Source: a virus. Taken from it: a stretch of DNA of 20,193 bases. The number at the start of each line of letters is the position of its first letter. Positions within the stretch are counted from its first letter, which is position 1. Positions 206-13,743 of this stretch are shown here, one piece after another. The translations under genes and the position numbers were made by a program. The DNA is taken from UHGV virus genome UHGV-0040698. One strand, given 5' to 3'. The notes beneath the pieces were generated by a model. That model made no database searches and had not been told where the DNA came from. It was given only the letters and a program-made list of their open reading frames with translations.

Positions 206-1138
206 ATGACTACTACAGCCACTTCCGCGCCACTAACTAAACAAAAAAAAATGCGTATCGGTTTCTTCCAAAGCTCCTCAGGAACGAAGTCAACTACATC
301 AAATGCACAACTTGCATTTGACAACATGTATACAACCATTGTTACACCTTCGCAAAATTCTTATACCGCTGAGTTTGATAAGAAAAAATTAAAGATTGTA
401 TTATTAGAAAAAGACGCACAGGCGGAGTTCTATTTTGGTTATCTATCATGCTCTCGTGATGGTTTCCACTTACCTTATATTGGTGATGAAAATTGGGATG
501 AGCACAATATTCCGTTAGATGATAAAAAATATATAGTCGAACGCACTTATTTTATTTACTACTATAAGAAAGACATTCTTGTTTTATCTCAAAATCATTT
601 AGGACCTAAAGTTTCCGATTTAGCATTTCTTTTATTCAATTTTTCTGAAGAAAACAAACCTGTAGCGTTTGAGGCAATTTGGAAAAAAGAAAGTGTAAAA
701 GAACTACTTGAAACAGGAAGCACTTTACGTAGCTGTGAAATTACACTCGCCGCTCCACGTAATTTTAGCGCAACGGATTATGACCTTTCGAATTCATTTT
801 CCAAAAGTATGATTGAAATGATGGCTGGGATGGGCGGTTCGCATTTAAAACTATCACTTAGAGGTAGAGCATCGCAACGTAAATTAATCCGTGGTTATCT
901 CAGTGATGAAGTAAAAAGTGGAATAAAGGAATTAATAGAAAAAGTTCCTCACTTATTACGTAAAGCTAATGTCACTGAACCTAAAAATACTCATTCAAGG
1001 AGTCTTCTCAATCAAGTTCTGATCAGTGAAAAAAACATTAACACAAAAGATGGCTACGCAAAAGAAACAGATGTGCGTACTGCCTTGATCAGTGCTAAAA
1101 TTGAACATGGTCAGTATTTAAAGCAATATGAAATCTGA
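206..1138 (+). CDS. Hypothetical 310-aa protein; candidate RexA-like sensor of a two-gene module
   Basis: ATG at 206 with AAGGG upstream; long ORF in visibly AT-rich DNA; immediately followed on the same strand by a small 4-TM membrane protein gene; no catalytic motif recognised. Confidence 0.6.
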   Translation: MTTTATSAPLTKQKKMRIGFFQSSSGTKSTTSNAQLAFDNMYTTIVTPSQNSYTAEFDKKKLKIVLLEKDAQAEFYFGYLSCSRDGFHLPYIGDENWDEHNIPLDDKKYIVERTYFIYYYKKDILVLSQNHLGPKVSDLAFLLFNFSEENKPVAFEAIWKKESVKELLETGSTLRSCEITLAAPRNFSATDYDLSNSFSKSMIEMMAGMGGSHLKLSLRGRASQRKLIRGYLSDEVKSGIKELIEKVPHLLRKANVTEPKNTHSRSLLNQVLISEKNINTKDGYAKETDVRTALISAKIEHGQYLKQYEI

Positions 1139-1161
1139 TCTTATTTTTAAGGATGATGATT

Positions 1162-1605
1162 ATGCTTATTAAAGTTTTAATTAACATAGTTATCAGTGGG
1201 CTGTTAGCTTGGGTGCTTGGGAAATACCTAGCGCCTATGGCTCACTCTGATATCTTAAGTACAGCCGGAGTGTTATCTACGGTGGCAGGCATTTTGTTTG
1301 GTTTTGTATTGGCCGCTATTTCCATCTTCAGTTCTGCAAGTTCAAGTACTGATGGAATTATTTTTGCTTTAAAACAAAACAAGATTTTACCTAAAATTAT
1401 TCATAACCTGTTATCTACGGGAGTTACCTTAATATTAGCATGTATTTTCCCGCTGATAGCAATGTTTATAAATGAAAAAATCACCATTACCTCTGTAAGA
1501 CTTGATTTCGCCCTAACCTTATATGGTTTCTCGACCCTGATCGTATCAATAGTTTCATTTGCAAGTACCTGGAGGAAAATAAACTGGATATTACCCCACA
1601 TATAA
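1162..1605 (+). CDS. Small four-helix membrane protein (147 aa); candidate RexB-like effector
   Basis: AAGGA Shine-Dalgarno 8 nt before ATG at 1162 (track start 1153 sits directly on the SD); four hydrophobic segments of ~20 aa; gene pair architecture matches lambda RexA/RexB. Confidence 0.6.
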   Translation: MLIKVLINIVISGLLAWVLGKYLAPMAHSDILSTAGVLSTVAGILFGFVLAAISIFSSASSSTDGIIFALKQNKILPKIIHNLLSTGVTLILACIFPLIAMFINEKITITSVRLDFALTLYGFSTLIVSIVSFASTWRKINWILPHI

Positions 1606-4003: not shown

Positions 4004-4399
4004 TTACCGAGTTGCTAATTTGCAACTCGCTTTTTCGTACTTACTGATAGTGATCTCGACCTTCCCCTCCGGGATAACCGGTCCCCACTCCACCAGCATT
4101 CTTTTCACCTGACTGTCGTCTTCCCACACACCCGCGTGGGTCAGGGCGTCAAACAGCGCCTTGTTATAGTTGTCCAGATCGCGGATCCGGTTATCCGGAG
4201 GAAACAACACGATCTCCACTGAAGCAGGTGCCGACGTTGGTTTTGGCAGACGACGTAACTGCTCAACTATTGCTGCACACGCCGCGCTCTGGAATTTGCG
4301 CCCCGCCGCGCTTATCAGGCTCTTACCTGCAAACGCCCCTTTGTTGGGGTGTCGCCAGTACGTGTTCACGCTGGGCGGGAAAGGCAGGATCAGCTTCAT
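4004..4399 (-). CDS. rusA: Holliday junction resolvase RusA
   Basis: ~130-aa product with conserved RusA-like acidic core (DLDNYNKALFDALT...W.DD.QV); ATG with GAGGGG upstream; ATGA overlap with upstream gene. Confidence 0.8.
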   Translation of the reverse strand: MKLILPFPPSVNTYWRHPNKGAFAGKSLISAAGRKFQSAACAAIVEQLRRLPKPTSAPASVEIVLFPPDNRIRDLDNYNKALFDALTHAGVWEDDSQVKRMLVEWGPVIPEGKVEITISKYEKASCKLATR

Positions 4400-4722
4400 A
4401 CTTTCAGACCCCTCTCATGTAACCAGTGGGCTGCACGCAACCTGGCGTTCTCCTCACCGGCAAGCAGTGCGCGGATGATACCGACCGCTTCGCTGTCGTC
4501 GTCCTTCACTGCGGTATGAAGCGTGATCCCCCGGGCCACGCCACGCTTTATCGTGATGACGCCTTTTTTCTCCAGTGCGCGAAGATGCTCCACCGCTGCA
4601 TTCACCGAACGGTATCCCAGCATGGTTGCCACCTCCTGATTGGTTGGCGGAAAGCCACGTTCTTTCTGGTAAGAAATCAGCATATCCAGCACCTGCTGCT
4701 GGCATTGAGTTAACGTCGTCAT
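4396..4722 (-). CDS. LexA N-terminal DNA-binding-domain protein without peptidase domain
   Basis: LTQCQQQVLDMLISYQKERGFPPTNQEVATMLGYRSVNAAVEHLRALEKKGVITIKRGVARGI parallels the LexA winged-helix N-domain (LT.RQ.EV...I......G.PPT..EIA..LG.RSPNAAEEHLKAL.RKGVIEI..G.SRGI); 108 aa, no S24 Ser/Lys domain; GGAGA SD. Confidence 0.7.
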   Translation of the reverse strand: MTTLTQCQQQVLDMLISYQKERGFPPTNQEVATMLGYRSVNAAVEHLRALEKKGVITIKRGVARGITLHTAVKDDDSEAVGIIRALLAGEENARLRAAHWLHERGLKV

Positions 4723-5372
4723 GCCGCCATCTCCCTGACCAGTTTTTCTGCCTGCTGGCGAACCTGCGCCAGAAACGCCTCACCACATGCCTCAAGTTCA
4801 TCGCGCCCGATGTAGCTGATTGCCGGTCCCTTCCAGGTCTTGTCGAAAACAGCAATAGCACCAGCGAAGAAAGCGCCTGTCGGCACCTGCTTCTCATCCT
4901 TCGGGATAAACCAGGCAGGCAGTTCAAAACCAATACGCCCGCGAATAAAAGCAATATGATCTGCATCTTCCGGCCACCACACTTCGCTGGTGGCAGCTTT
5001 GATCAGGAAAACATAGCGCCCGCCTTTATCACGCATGGCACTGGCATGCTTCATGATGTAACGCATGCCGGTGATGTATTGCCCCTCATGCTGACTGGCG
5101 CGGCTGTATGGGGGATTACCAAAGGCAGCACCTTTAAGCTCCGCAAGACGTTCTGACCAGTCATGCGCCAGCGCGTTGTCTTCCGCCGTGTAATACGCGG
5201 CACATTTGGCGTTATCACCGTCAGTGAACAGATCCAGAACAAACGGGCCAAACAGGGTGTTAATTCCCCAGAAAATGTTGTCCGGCGTGCGCCACTGATC
5301 GCCCACTTCCTTCAGTTCATGGGCTGGTTTGTTCCGCAGTTCCACCAGCGCCTGGCAATATTTATTACTCAT
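4719..5372 (-). CDS. Phage N6-adenine DNA methyltransferase (Dam-like)
   Basis: FGNPPYS catalytic motif IV of N6-adenine MTases; start set at ATG 5372 (TAATG overlap with upstream stop, GGGGG SD) rather than the GTG at 5405. Confidence 0.75.
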   Translation of the reverse strand: MSNKYCQALVELRNKPAHELKEVGDQWRTPDNIFWGINTLFGPFVLDLFTDGDNAKCAAYYTAEDNALAHDWSERLAELKGAAFGNPPYSRASQHEGQYITGMRYIMKHASAMRDKGGRYVFLIKAATSEVWWPEDADHIAFIRGRIGFELPAWFIPKDEKQVPTGAFFAGAIAVFDKTWKGPAISYIGRDELEACGEAFLAQVRQQAEKLVREMAA

Positions 5373-5860
5373 TAAGCCCCCACGTAATTCCCTGACAGAT
5401 ACCACTCTTCACCCGATGCAGCGCGCTTGCTGCTTTTCCGTAAGCACCGCTCACGACGCGCCAGAAAATTGTTTCGTTCTGGCTGGGAGTGGCTTTCACG
5501 GAATGCCGCCATCCACACGGTTGCAGCACGACGGTATAAGCCCCTGGACTCCAGTTCTTCCGCCTGGCGGGTCAGGCACAAAATCACACGGGGATCGTTA
5601 GTGCCGACATAGAAATTGCGCACAGGTCTGGTTTCACGAACTGGTTGTGGTTCCGGTTCCTGCGCTCTCTCAGTCAGGCGCGGGAAATGTCTGCGTGTAT
5701 CTCCTTCACAACGGTGAGCCACACGCCCACTCTGACGTAACTTGCTTGCTGACTGCAGAACGCGCTGCCGTGAGTAACCGGCAAAAGCATCCGCAATATC
5801 TCCGGAAGTACAGCCCGGATGGGCTTCAATGAATTTCTGAACGTCATTCAAAAGACTCAT
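5372..5860 (-). CDS. Hypothetical regulator with PerC-like C-terminal region
   Basis: C-terminal AEELESRGLYRRAATVW resembles PerC-family activators; ATG at 5860 two nt after the upstream stop with GGGGG SD (track start 5866 is GTG). Confidence 0.5.
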   Translation of the reverse strand: MSLLNDVQKFIEAHPGCTSGDIADAFAGYSRQRVLQSASKLRQSGRVAHRCEGDTRRHFPRLTERAQEPEPQPVRETRPVRNFYVGTNDPRVILCLTRQAEELESRGLYRRAATVWMAAFRESHSQPERNNFLARRERCLRKSSKRAASGEEWYLSGNYVGA

Positions 5861-5862
5861 GC

Positions 5863-6804
5863 TCACCCCCTGAATCCTGCCGGGATTTGGCTGTAGTCCA
5901 CGTTGTCGTAACTGGCTTTGAAGTACGGGTCTTCGCGTTTTTCGGTGTACGTGCTGACGGACGGCGATAAGCGCAGGGAAAGCTCATCCCATTTTTCCCG
6001 CAGCTTCGACGGGCTGAGCACGTTACGGCACCAGAACGGATCGCGACTGACGCGGCTGTACATCTCGCAGATTTGTTTATGAGTACGACCATCCTGCACA
6101 CACATCAGGCGAATTTCGTTTGCCCAGGCTGTCCAGTTCGGTTCTTTGGGACGAACCACCTCGCCGTCACATTCGGCGGCCTGCTCGTACAGGGCGATGA
6201 TTTTTTTCCAGAGCCACTGTGCGCAGGTCAAATCATCCTGCGTTCCCCACTGGCGCTTTTTAGGGCTGAATACAACCGCATCAGGATGGCGAGTTAAAAA
6301 CTCCTGTTCAGCCGTCTGCGTGTCCGGTTGCGAAGCGTCCGGACGAGAAGTTTTTTTATCTGACGGATCATGTTTTGATTTTACTGACGGATCCCCGCCA
6401 GATTCTGACGGGTGAAAACCCGCTTTTTTGCCAGATTTCGACGCATCAAATTTTGACGGGTCAGATTTTGATGCGTCAGATTTTGACGGGTCAGAATCTG
6501 ACAGTTGAGAAAATGCCGCTGCCTGAAGCTTCGCAACGTTAAGCTGATAAACATTCGACGCATTGCGGTTACCCTGGCGACGCGCCTTACGCGTTAACCA
6601 GCCTTCTGCTTCCAGCCGTGCGATAGCCGTTCTGACGGTACTCATTCCCGCGCCAATCTGGCGGGCAATGGTTTCAATTGATGGCCAGCACACACCTTCG
6701 TCATTACTGAAATCAGCCAGGCGGGCCATAATTGCCACGCTGGATAATTTCATGCCTGATGCAGCGCAACCATCCCATACATAGCCGGTTAATTTAGTGC
6801 TCAT
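5863..6804 (-). CDS. Phage replication initiation protein (N-terminal winged-HTH, repeat-containing linker)
   Basis: N-terminus CWPSIETIARQIGAGMSTVRTAIARLEAEGWL is an HTH of replication-initiator type; the gene contains DNA iterons that encode the SDPSKSDASKSDPSKFDASKS repeat; GAGG SD. Confidence 0.7.
   Translation of the reverse strand: MSTKLTGYVWDGCAASGMKLSSVAIMARLADFSNDEGVCWPSIETIARQIGAGMSTVRTAIARLEAEGWLTRKARRQGNRNASNVYQLNVAKLQAAAFSQLSDSDPSKSDASKSDPSKFDASKSGKKAGFHPSESGGDPSVKSKHDPSDKKTSRPDASQPDTQTAEQEFLTRHPDAVVFSPKKRQWGTQDDLTCAQWLWKKIIALYEQAAECDGEVVRPKEPNWTAWANEIRLMCVQDGRTHKQICEMYSRVSRDPFWCRNVLSPSKLREKWDELSLRLSPSVSTYTEKREDPYFKASYDNVDYSQIPAGFRG
6355..6506. repeat. Iteron array inside the replication gene (candidate origin of replication)
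   Basis: About eight imperfect direct copies of a ~14-15 bp unit (ATTTTGACGGGTCAG, ATTTTGATGCGTCAG, GATTCTGACGGGTG ...) with TGACnnGTCA cores, analogous to ori-lambda inside gene O. Confidence 0.6.
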
Positions 6805-6813
6805 GACCGACCT

Positions 6814-7152
6814 CTATTTCCCTGAATTTACGACGAAACTGTTCGAGCGGGCTGAAGCACTCATGCTCATAGCCTTCGCGGAGGTAGATAACACGTTGTG
6901 TTTCCGGCTCCCAACGAATGACTCTGACGGGCACTCCGTAGTGATCTTTGAACCAGCGGTTAACTTGTCGCAAAGGACTGTCTCCTTCTGCCGGTTGAAA
7001 TCACCCACAGCCCACTCTGCAAAGCTGTGGGTTACAATTTCCCTGTCACCTGGTACATTTACTGCATAGCAATACTCCACCTTCGCTTTTCCACCCGGTA
7101 CAGGAAGCGCAATCAGTTGCGAGCGACGGTAGTGTGTTGTTAAACTGTTCAT
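6814..7152 (-). CDS. Hypothetical protein (112 aa)
   Basis: ATG at 7152 overlaps the upstream stop (ATGA) and has GGAGA upstream; stop 7 nt before the replication gene start; no recognisable motif. Confidence 0.4.
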
Positions 7153-7712
7153 GCGTTAGTTTCTCCACAGTCACGACACGCCACGGCGCCCGGAGCTGCA
7201 CACTCGCGGGCGTCACTACTTTCTGAAACGCAAAAGATTTTGTAGACCAGTGCTGCATGCTCCTGCAGCTTCGAAATTGAGAGGTACAGCTCATCGTTAA
7301 TTGCTGTCTTCTCATGCGGTTCCACTACACCGTCTTCAATTGCTGAACGAATCTGTTTTGAATAACTGCCGATCTGTTCAATGACTTCCAGCAGGCGTTG
7401 GTTGATATCGGCGTTGTCCACATCCTCGACGTCAGGAAGAGACACAAAGACGCCATTTGCAGACTGCGCCACAGCATCAGCAATGAAGTGAGTGCCACCA
7501 GCACGCTGTAAAACCATTGCCCATCCCAGCGGGAAAATCTGATCGCCATCTGCACGAAGGCGGTTGAATAAAGCGTTTTCTGTTACATCGAGCCAGTCAG
7601 CCGCTTCAGCGTAACCACCCGGCAACGCCGCGATAGTTTTTCTGACAGCTTTCACGTACCACTCAGGCTGTTTTTCTATTTTCCAGTGATGCTTACCCAC
7701 GGTTAGCCTCAT
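7149..7712 (-). CDS. CII-like / YdaT-like phage regulatory protein
   Basis: Position directly downstream of the Cro-like gene as in Rac ydaS-ydaT; 187-aa product; weak SD; family assignment by context and size only. Confidence 0.45.
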
Positions 7713-8034: not shown

Positions 8035-8709
8035 ATGAAAACAATCCATGACATCCGGCGGTCTAACGCCAGAAAACTGAGAGATGGTGTTGGCGGGAAT
8101 TCTTCCTTTGCCACTATGATTGATCGCGAGCCAACCCAGACCAGCAGGTTTATGGGAGATGGTGCTACTAAAAATATCGGTGACAGCATGGCACGACACA
8201 TCGAAAAATGTTTCGACCTGCCTGTCGGATGGCTCGATCAAGAACACCAGACAACGAACATCACAAAAAAACCTGATGTTTCAATCACTAATAAACAAAT
8301 CACATTAGTCCCTGTCATATCATGGGTACAGGCCGGAGCATGGAAAGAAGTTGGATATTCTGAGGTTGATTTGAGCACAGCAGAAACGTATCCCTGCCCT
8401 GTACCCTGTGGGGAAATGACTTATATCTTGCGGGTGATAGGTGATTCAATGATTGATGAGTACCGCCCGGGAGACATGATTTTTGTCGATCCTGAAGTAC
8501 CTGCCTGCCACGGTGACGACGTTATTGCATTGATGCACGATACAGGCGAAACCACCTTCAAAAGGTTGATAGAAGATGGGACACAGCGTTATCTCAAAGC
8601 GTTAAACCCAAACTGGCCTGAGCCTTACATTAAGATCAACGGTAATTGCTCTATAATTGGTACAGTGATTTTCTCAGGAAAACCAAGAAGATACAAAATC
8701 AAAGCCTAA
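8035..8709 (+). CDS. cI-like prophage repressor with S24 (LexA-type) autopeptidase domain
   Basis: C-terminal GDSM...FKRL Ser/Lys dyad spacing typical of S24 peptidases; N-terminal CI-type DNA-binding region; divergent from the cro-like gene. Confidence 0.85.
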   Translation: MKTIHDIRRSNARKLRDGVGGNSSFATMIDREPTQTSRFMGDGATKNIGDSMARHIEKCFDLPVGWLDQEHQTTNITKKPDVSITNKQITLVPVISWVQAGAWKEVGYSEVDLSTAETYPCPVPCGEMTYILRVIGDSMIDEYRPGDMIFVDPEVPACHGDDVIALMHDTGETTFKRLIEDGTQRYLKALNPNWPEPYIKINGNCSIIGTVIFSGKPRRYKIKA

Positions 8710-12353: not shown

Positions 12354-12703
12354 TGGAGCCATACAGCCTCACACTCGATGAGGCCTGTCATTTTCTCAAG
12401 ATATCCAGACCGACTGCCATTAACTGGATACGCACAGGGCGTCTTCAGGCAACACGCAAAGATCCCACTAAGAATAAATCTCCTTACCTCACAACACGAC
12501 AAGCCTGCATTGCGGCTCTTCAGTCTCCGCTGCATACTGTCCAGGTGAGTGCGGGTGATGGCATAACAGAGGAAAGAAAATGTCACTCTTCCGCAGAGGT
12601 GAAATATGGTACGCCAGTTTCACATTGCCGAACGGTAAAAGATTTAAACAGTCTCTTGGAACAAAGGACAAAAGGCAGGCGACAGAACTCCATGACAAGC
12701 TAA
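12353..12703 (+). CDS. Excisionase-like (AlpA/Xis-type HTH) protein
   Basis: [28 protein letters not shown] helix-turn-helix of excisionase type; TAATG coupling to the upstream gene; 3' end overlaps the integrase start by 124 nt, so the true C-terminus is uncertain. Confidence 0.5.
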
Positions 12704-13743
12704 AGGCTGAAGCATGGCGGGTCAGCAAACTTGGTGAAATACCTGATATAACGTTCGAGGAAGCGTGTGTCAGGTGGCTTGAAGAGAAAGCACATAAAAA
12801 ATCACTGGACGATGACAAAAGCCGGATCGGATTCTGGCTTCAACATTTCGCAGGAATGCAACTAAGAGACATTACTGAATCAAAAATTTATTCAGCAATG
12901 CAGAAAATGACGAACCGGCGTCATGAGGAAAACTGGAGACTCAGGGCAGAAGCATGCAGAAAAAAAGGGAAACCTGTTCCAGAATACACGCCAAAACCAG
13001 CGTCCGTTGCAACGAAGGCTACGCATCTTTCATTTATAAAGGCCCTACTAAGAGCCGCAGAGCGTGAATGGAAAATGCTGGATAAGGCACCAATTATTAA
13101 AGTGCCTCAACCAAAGAATAAACGGATCCGCTGGCTGGAGCCCCATGAAGCACAAAGGCTGATTGATGAATGTCCGGAGCCATTAAAGTCTGTTGTTGAA
13201 TTTGCACTGGCAACAGGCTTAAGACGCTCGAACATCATCAACCTTGAATGGCAACAAATAGACATGCAGCGCCGGGTGGCATGGATAAACCCGGAAGAGA
13301 GTAAATCAAACCGCGCAATTGGCGTTGCGCTGAATGATACTGCATGTCGCGTTTTGAAAAAACAAATCGGGAATCATCACCGTTGGGTATTTGTGTACAA
13401 GGAAAGCTGTACCAAACCAGACGGAACGAAAGCGCCAACAGTAAGGAAGATGCGGTATGACGCAAACACAGCCTGGAAAGCGGCGCTGAGACGGGCTGGT
13501 ATTGATGATTTCAGATTTCACGACTTGAGACACACCTGGGCAAGTTGGCTGGTTCAAGCCGGAGTCCCGTTGTCAGTGTTACAGGAAATGGGAGGCTGGG
13601 AGTCTATCGAAATGGTTCGTCGATATGCTCACCTTGCACCTAATCACCTTACCGAACACGCACGGCAAATAGACTCGATCCTGAACCCATCGGTCCCAAA
13701 TTTGTCCCAGTCAAAAAATAAGGAAAGTACTAATGATGTGTAA
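12580..13743 (+). CDS. Lambda-family tyrosine integrase (Rac IntR-like)
   Basis: N-terminal [14 protein letters not shown] arm-binding region; catalytic R (LATGLRRSN), HxxR ([10 protein letters not shown]) and Y (VRRYAHL); GAGGAA SD; transcribed toward the tRNA-derived att core. Confidence 0.9.

Follow-up and report, generated by a model that had tools for sequence, protein, structure and literature searches.

The DNA analyzed here is a 20,193-nt stretch of the virus genome UHGV-0040698 (hereafter the window, i.e., the whole stretch, to which all positions refer), and it comprises the early region of a lambdoid Escherichia coli prophage, from int to Q, whose rightward operon runs along the minus strand. 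Our subject is the replication initiator gene of this operon together with the short repeats inside its reading frame, which the original prediction took for an origin-like iteron array. That prediction described the gene correctly, except that its strand was left unstated; the gene lies on the minus strand at 5863-6804. The gene, the elements within it and the gene that follows are listed below.

5863-6804, minus strand: replication initiator gene, 313 aa (open reading frame and translation)
6520-6804, minus strand: region coding for the N-terminal winged helix-turn-helix, which presumably binds the iterons
6436-6506: tandem iteron array with the coding-strand unit TCTGAC[C/G]C[G/A]TCAAAA; four units (6481-6495, 6466-6480, 6451-6465, and 6436-6450) and a partial one (6496-6506)
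6401-6418: iteron-like unit TTTTCACCCGTCAGAATC, standing alone behind a spacer that varies (~15 nt); 15-mer match at 6403-6418
6351-6393: A-rich segment (66% A+T) that includes the GATCCGTCAG unit twice (6384-6393 and 6360-6369, 24 bp apart); candidate unwinding region
6322-6356: conserved element of ~30 bp, AAAAAACTTCTCGTCCGGACGCTTCGCAACCGGAC, in which a 15-bp direct repeat occurs twice, with the palindrome CGTCCGGACG (repeat family D3)
5974-6261, minus strand: region coding for the C-terminal helical domain, homologous to the C-terminal (P-binding) domain of lambda O
5866-5937, minus strand: region coding for the C-terminal tail, REDPYFKASYDNVDYSQIPAGFRG
5372-5866, minus strand: downstream gene, YfdN-like, 164 aa, with a PerC domain

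The initiator of 313 residues starts with a winged helix-turn-helix (wHTH; residues 1 to 97), followed by a disordered linker (approximately 100 to 165), an O-like helical domain (approximately 182 to 277), and a DnaT-like tail (290 to 313). In the AlphaFold2 model, the wHTH spans residues 2 to 97, the disorder residues 101 to 164, and the helical domain residues 188 to 277. The protein matches Pfam HTH_36 (E = 4e-11) and PHROG 391, "replication initiation O-like" (E = 1.6e-135), and its C-terminal domain is similar to lambda O by BLASTP (E = 1e-25) and tblastn (E = 3e-23). Pfam Phage_rep_O (PF04492) matched lambda O only and not the N terminus of the initiator, where HTH_36 is found instead. 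A search of PDB chain sequences with the whole initiator returned only weak matches to MarR-type wHTH proteins, which were set aside. The model shows no second winged helix, its C-terminal half being all-helical without a wing, and the initiator lacks the C-terminal DnaB_2/DDBH2 domain of DnaD-like replisome organizers.

Eight TGAC-containing units are present at 6360-6506, i.e., four tandem 15-bp units and degenerate copies of them, in agreement with the "eight or so" TGACnnGTCA repeats originally placed at 6355-6506. Only four to five of them stand in tandem (6436-6506), and three further copies are set apart, the last at 6360. Tandem Repeats Finder reported periods of 15 (4.3 copies, 81% matches) and 30 (2.1 copies, 88% matches) over 6432-6495. 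The tandem part is readable either as TGACnnGTCA or as GTCA-N5-TGAC dyads and gave rise to direct-repeat families D1 and D2 and inverted repeats I4, I6, and I10 in a repeat search. On the coding strand, from 6506 toward 6360, the partial unit is followed by TCTGACCCGTCAAAA, TCTGACGCATCAAAA, TCTGACCCGTCAAAA, and TTTGATGCGTCGAAA, then by a 15-nt spacer, TTTTCACCCGTCAGAATC, and two GATCCGTCAG units. Perfect TGACNNGTCA units start at 6454 and 6484, and units with one mismatch at 6361, 6406, and 6469; reading by eye added another one-mismatch unit at 6439 and two-mismatch units at 6385 and 6499. With up to three mismatches, the 15-mer has seven matches in the window, five of them within 6403-6495 (0.56 expected; seven reached in 0/100 shuffles), and the degenerate motif GAYSCRTCR has 10, eight of them within 6361-6492 (2.0 expected; 10 reached in 0/100 shuffles). 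The bare TGACNNGTCA core with at most one mismatch is not enriched window-wide (10 matches versus 6.7 expected), its clustering alone being significant. All units share one reading frame and encode SDPSK, SDASK, or FDASK, then HPSE, DPSV, and DPSD, and the model places them in a disordered linker, which bears out the claim that they code for an SDPSK/SDASK low-complexity linker within the initiator reading frame. The array occupies codons 100 to 149 of 313, in the linker-coding part, against codons 117 to 145 of 299 in lambda, and the arrangement is thus the same as that of ori-lambda within gene O, as had been proposed.

The number of units varies between 0 and ~10 among near-identical genes (alignment A1). 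An IMG/VR scan gave near-identical copies only, so that it informs this polymorphism and is no independent test of the association between tails and loaders described below; the initiator had 313 residues in 74 of its 78 copies, 318 in three, and 323 in one. In four sequences of alignment A1 from E. coli and Klebsiella (P0017, P0019, P0015, and P0069), in-frame deletions have eliminated either the whole tandem array or a portion of the winged helix. Judging from the sequences, these copies probably belong to domesticated prophages whose origin is dead.

A repeated peptide could by itself produce a repeated DNA sequence, and the codons used in related genes bear on this directly. The initiator has ~2,400 homologue clusters, and for comparison we used 80 related loci, one per species, from which the genes were extracted; 65 of them share the N-terminal type of the window (type A). 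Two to seven copies of GAYSCRTCR lie in the linker of each type-A locus, whatever its C-terminal domain. The consensus of 159 units from the 65 species is CAAAATCTGAC[C/G]C[G/A]TCAAAATCTGA, third codon positions included, with a modal spacing of 15 bp. The serine of the encoded motif, [D/H/E][P/A]S, is specified by TCA 310 times and by TCG 24 times (334/334) and never by the other four codons, whereas in these 65 genes five or six codons are in use for each of four invariant serines of the N-terminal domain. Synonymous sites are therefore randomized except in the repeats. If the repeats were only a low-complexity SDPSK linker generated by slippage, without any role as DNA, one would expect the single frame seen in the window, the Ser/Asp/Lys-rich disordered peptide, and the changes of unit number in slippage-like 15-nt steps; but the invariant TCA/TCG serines next to mixed codons elsewhere, the arrays of relatives that run in three frames or in both orientations and encode unrelated peptides, and the dependence of array type on N-terminal domain type make such an origin of the repeats scarcely credible. 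Codon usage and reading frames already refute it for the most part.

The same loci indicate which part of the protein the repeats belong to. The motif is absent from loci whose N-terminal domain is of another type while their O-like C-terminal domain belongs to the same family; one of these (L013) has another N terminus and no motif yet keeps a near-identical tail. Such relatives carry different arrays in the same place: GKTCAAAAYG five times, spaced by 23 to 24 bp and in three frames (encoding RSKC, GQND, EVKM, or GSKW); AGAWTGYGG five times in mixed frames and orientations; GAATCRCGGAAC three times; and TTGASSSSYYAA up to 10 times in both orientations, encoding DPP or EGS. Locus L061 is a relative of the GGTCAAAATG type. 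There are at least six N-terminal types, each with its own array. Conversely, many loci with the N terminus and iterons of the window carry an unrelated C-terminal domain. Because the motif tracks the N terminus and not the C terminus, the array travels with the N-terminal DNA-binding domain, a co-inheritance that, as far as sequence comparison goes, is the pattern expected of cognate iterons, as described for lambda, P22, and phage L (PMC8022706).

Further conserved elements lie on the promoter-distal side of the array. Nearly every type-A locus conserves a block given as TTTT[G/C]ACCCGTCAGAATCTGG (or TTTT[G/C]ACCCGTCAGAATCTGGSGGGGATCCGTCAG), preceded by a spacer that varies. Each of the two GATCCGTCAG units of the A-rich segment carries a GATC (at 6366 and 6390), and units of this type have GAT in 103/103 cases and never GAC (GAT-CC, not GAC-CC), so that they always carry Dam sites. 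Across all loci, the GATC density is 10.2/kb in linkers versus 3.0/kb in the rest of the genes, with at least one site in every locus; GATC is not enriched in the window overall, where only the conserved origin pair stands out, together with the linker density across loci. In most related loci, DNA methyltransferases of several classes are encoded downstream of the initiator, and in the window the phage Dam, two genes downstream, could methylate the origin pair. By analogy with oriC or P1 oriR, control of the origin by Dam and SeqA is possible. The AAAAAACTTCTCGTCCGGACGCTTCGCAACCGGAC element is conserved at the nucleotide level in 31 loci with differing N- and C-terminal types and may belong to the origin core or else be a recombination joint at which modules are exchanged. 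DnaA boxes are not enriched, and no perfect box lies near the origin. A terminator-like hairpin with a T-run at 6409-6422 (plus strand, antisense to the gene and inside the origin) was discarded: its stem-forming spacer is not conserved in relatives, and the hairpin is thus probably due to chance.

The repeats could also be initiator binding sites that serve autoregulation, copy control, or incompatibility through titration or handcuffing, with replication starting elsewhere in the prophage. Iterons of plasmids do have these additional roles, and the unwinding element beside the array is weak. We nevertheless consider this improbable: nowhere else between int and Q, in the 20-kb window, is the 15-mer found again, the array holds the same position as that of lambda, and the A-rich/GATC block and the 30-bp element are conserved and travel with the array. 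Moreover, the distinct repeat arrays in the initiator genes of P22 and phage L are read as origins (PMC8022706).

The original idea of an origin-like array within the initiator gene is therefore well backed by codon conservation, by the tracking of array and N terminus, and by homology to lambda O, and we regard it as very likely, from these comparisons, that the site is an origin and that the repeats bind the initiator. The best overall explanation, to which we assign a probability of roughly 0.75, is that 6322-6506 is the origin of a lambdoid prophage replicon of the SfII/SfIV/e14/CPS-53 type, located inside its own O-family initiator gene. The N-terminal winged helix would bind the 15-bp TGACssGTCA/GTCA-N5-TGAC iterons, as their covariation suggests, and the resulting nucleoprotein complex might destabilize the adjoining A-rich segment with its two Dam sites. 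Host DnaB helicase would then be brought in without a phage-encoded loader, possibly through the lambda-O-like C-terminal domain and the disordered DnaT-like tail, which may engage the host DnaC-DnaB/primosome route. Several points weigh against this explanation. Phage modules spread horizontally, and the 65 loci are for this reason not independent, though the synonymous sites of the flanking domain are randomized. The A-rich sequence at 6342-6386 is the least stable stretch of 30 to 45 bp in the gene but falls only between the 9th and 15th percentiles of the window, so that its role in unwinding is putative, and it is much weaker than the AT-rich region of lambda. Finally, the period is 15 bp here, versus iterons of ~18 bp with a spacing of 20 to 24 bp and another sequence in lambda.

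The replicon encodes no recognizable helicase loader. No homologue of P, DnaC, or DnaB was found in the window (int to Q), and tblastn searches of the complete SfII genome with lambda O, lambda P, DnaC, DnaT, and DnaB recovered the O-like domain only and no other replication gene; the suggestion that helicase recruitment may be unconventional thus stands. The replication module is 98 to 100% identical across SfII, SfIV, and vB_EcoS-569R4, and it operates in viable phages. Around the origin, 1.9 kb are 99.8% identical to phage vB_EcoS-569R4 and 98.1% identical to Shigella phages SfII and SfIV, and the initiator protein is 100% identical in SfIV and 99% identical in SfII. The 1.9-kb stretch has a match in 2,778 of 5,426 complete E. 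coli genomes, 1,546 of which cover at least 80% of it.

The downstream partner is, as predicted, a small PerC-like protein without homology to P, DnaC, or DnaB (Pfam PerC, E = 7.9e-9; PHROG 1324, "transcriptional activator"). Its gene overlaps the initiator stop by 4 nt and is translationally coupled to it, an overlap also present in 21 other loci, and its N-terminal ~97 residues correspond to PHROG 23071, a family without an assigned function. Both features would suit a nonhomologous functional stand-in for lambda P, but this is very improbable: only 22 of the 80 related loci have the YfdN-like gene, more than half of those with a GFRG-type tail lack it, the C-terminal half of the protein is a PerC/ANR-type transcription factor domain, one locus (L057) has a true P gene with the PerC-domain match further downstream after P, and in phage cdtI the initiator is directly followed by dam.

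Another candidate for helicase recruitment is the end of the initiator itself. Its last residues, ...VDYSQIPAGFRG (SQIPAGFRG), match the end of E. coli DnaT, ...EPDSQIPPGFRG (SQIPPGFRG), with 8/9 positions identical by BLASTP at both extreme C termini, and this match accounts for the label "primosomal protein (I)" that the initiator bears in some records. The similarity is confined to the tail: the DnaT domain PF17948, a three-helix domain that binds single-stranded DNA (ssDNA), was not found in the initiator, and BLASTP with DnaT residues 1 to 88 showed no similarity, i.e., neither the N-terminal oligomerization/PriB-binding domain nor the acidic linker is present. The C-terminal sequence is IPxGFRG or IPxGFRGAK in each of the 120 DnaT clusters listed, and some phage proteins share the AK ending. 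The tail is found on three unrelated C-terminal domains and is hence a separable module. Initiators of the Phg_2220_C type end in ...RERDINAIS.PD..IPPGFRG, and only their last 22 residues align with DnaT by hhalign (59% identity, probability 93%, E = 3e-7). In phage cdtI and Stx2c phages, the last 33 residues of the window protein follow yet another C-terminal domain, with a recombination joint at 5938. The Stx2c-converting phages share 5300-5938 (the tail-coding end, the PerC-like gene, and the start of Dam) at 98% identity, and phage cdtI shares the tail and differs in the rest of the initiator; these phages share only the tail-coding end of the initiator gene and neighboring genes downstream, and a module boundary thus lies inside the gene, at the start of the tail.

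We classed 79 relatives by their tails and sought P, DnaC, and DnaB genes within 3.5 kb, with the following result.

Lambda-like tail (...HWNSPEAWENTL, ...TDWIDG...), 8 loci: lambda P homologue immediately downstream in 8/8
GFRG-type tail, 52 loci: P in 0/52; phage DnaC directly downstream in 1 (L072)
...GGTDDDFI tail, 1 locus (L070): DnaC
Other tails, 18 loci: no P, DnaC, or DnaB gene

Tail class and presence of P are thus associated (Fisher p = 3e-9). We tentatively propose that the tail is a helicase-recruiting element, with a likelihood that we place below even. Based on the co-occurrence of tail classes and loader genes, a more specific proposal, which we consider rather doubtful, is that the 9 to 22 residues of the tail, ...(RD.N..S.PD..)IPxGFRG, constitute a portable docking peptide, exchanged with or copied from host DnaT, that would hand the opened DNA to DnaC-DnaB (or PriA). 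Alternatively, the tail might have no part in helicase loading; the O-like domain would contact DnaB directly, host DnaC (possibly with DnaA) would do the rest, in the manner of iteron-plasmid Rep proteins, and the tail would aid ssDNA binding or stability. This is unlikely, in view of the lack of DnaA boxes described above, of the fact that the homologous domain of lambda O binds P rather than DnaB, and of a tail that remains intact on three unrelated domains to the complete exclusion of P genes. It would agree with the decrease in ssDNA affinity from ~10 to 27 µM when DnaT residues 154 to 179 are removed (PMC4132743), with the presence in the tail of Phe and Arg, residues that typically contact ssDNA, and with the 18 loader-less relatives that have no GFRG tail. 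Transplantation onto three domains and exclusion of P are more in keeping with a docking peptide than with a general aid to ssDNA binding.

The mechanism by which DnaT recruits DnaB/DnaC is called unknown in papers from 2017 to 2026 (PMC5778457, PMC13377028) and in PMC4132743, and several observations count against a recruiting role of the tail. The Fisher p value ignores phylogeny, and the absence of a loader is not confined to loci with the GFRG tail, because 18 loci have neither. In the preprimosome models obtained in 2026 by cryo-electron microscopy, the tail is missing since a fragment comprising DnaT residues 84 to 153 was used, and their authors favor the N-terminal domain of DnaT, not the tail, as the recruiter of DnaB/DnaC (PMC13377028). 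Removal of the DnaT tail (154 to 179) weakens ssDNA binding just 2- to 3-fold (~2.7-fold; PMC4132743).

The exceptional loci deserve mention. In L072 (4394-5113; see also L081, 739-2018), the gene right after an initiator with an IPAGFRG end encodes a phage DnaC with 51% identity to E. coli DnaC, in the same order as dnaT and dnaC in E. coli; from this gene order, the dnaT-dnaC pair may descend from a phage module of initiator and DnaC such as this one. In L070, a DnaC homologue (4405-5127) comes after the initiator, and the ...GGTDDDFI end of the initiator resembles the acidic C-terminal tail of SSB, which suggests that the exchange of tails mimicking host replication proteins is a general theme. 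The 18 initiators of the last class (L012, L014-L016, L018-L020, L033, L050, L051, L060, L066, L067, L073, L075-L077, and L079) end in a helix of the W..IW[KQ]..Q type and represent another, unexplained way to obtain the helicase.

The remaining genes of the window are those of a lambdoid early region.

12580-13743: integrase
8035-8709, plus strand: CI-type repressor
7149-7712, minus strand, rightward operon: CII-like YmfL protein
6814-7152, minus strand, rightward operon: DUF4222 protein
4719-5405, minus strand: Dam (N6-adenine) methyltransferase (Pfam Dam, PF05869, E = 1.1e-45)
After Dam, in order: LexA-DNA-binding-domain protein, RusA, KilA-N protein, DUF968/HNH protein
1649-2026: Q antiterminator

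The first gene after Dam (4396-4722, minus strand) encodes a protein of 108 aa that consists of the LexA DNA-binding domain alone (Pfam E = 2.9e-19), without the S24 peptidase domain. By its domain content, this nin-region protein could be a noncleavable LexA mimic that keeps SOS-box genes repressed. Past Q lies a two-gene cassette on the opposite strand, coding for a DUF6731 protein of 310 aa (206-1138, plus strand) and a 150-aa protein without a family (1153-1605, plus strand), at a typical site for accessory or defense genes; a PADLOC scan of this cassette and of the early-left genes gave zero matches, and a tRNA scan for the attachment site found none.

As an origin, the site follows the well-known lambda plan, and the phage group that carries it is very common and has been sequenced before. 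Our literature search found no description of this origin, of the DnaT-like tail, or of how the helicase is acquired, although most subscription journals lay outside the search and a prior description is possible; in the literature searched, the variant seen here, a loader-less O-type replicon with a DnaT-type tail, was likewise not found described. About half of the complete E. coli genomes contain the replicon, and it also drives SfII and SfIV, two Shigella phages that convert the serotype. Defining its origin provides a cis element and a specificity determinant (the N-terminal domain with its iterons), which matter for prophage induction, for incompatibility between coresident prophages, and for engineering. 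A phage initiator that used the DnaT peptide would be a simple genetic system for finding the partner of this tail, and dnaT-dnaC, if indeed the domesticated counterpart of a phage module of initiator and DnaC, would offer a handle on the recruitment of DnaB/DnaC by DnaT. The loader-less design is a testable lead on this question of replication restart.

Among known systems, ori-lambda with gene O is closest. Both initiator genes follow cII in the rightward early operon, both proteins consist of an N-terminal DNA-binding domain, a flexible linker, and homologous C-terminal domains, and both genes have in-frame iterons in their linker-coding middle with an A-rich segment on the promoter-distal side. 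The lambda system differs in its Phage_rep_O N terminus (HTH_36 here), in its P gene (none here), in its AT-rich region (weak here), and in the C terminus of O, which ends in ...TDWIYGVDL instead of the DnaT-like tail. In gene 18 of P22 and gene 18 of phage L, each initiator type likewise has its own repeats in its own coding region, but these phages have their own DnaB-type helicase, gp12, which is missing from the window replicon (PMC8022706). With E. coli DnaT, the initiator shares the extreme C terminus (SQIPPGFRG versus SQIPAGFRG) and none of the DnaT domains. Iteron plasmids have winged-helix initiators (RepA of pSC101, pi of R6K, and TrfA of RK2) and tandem iterons beside an unwinding element, and they use host DnaB and DnaC without a loader of their own. 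The window replicon resembles them in combining a winged-helix initiator and tandem iterons with the lack of its own loader; it differs in that the plasmid Rep proteins have two winged-helix domains, versus the single wHTH modeled here, and in that no DnaA boxes lie nearby, the origin is inside the gene, and the initiator carries a lambda O-type C-terminal domain.

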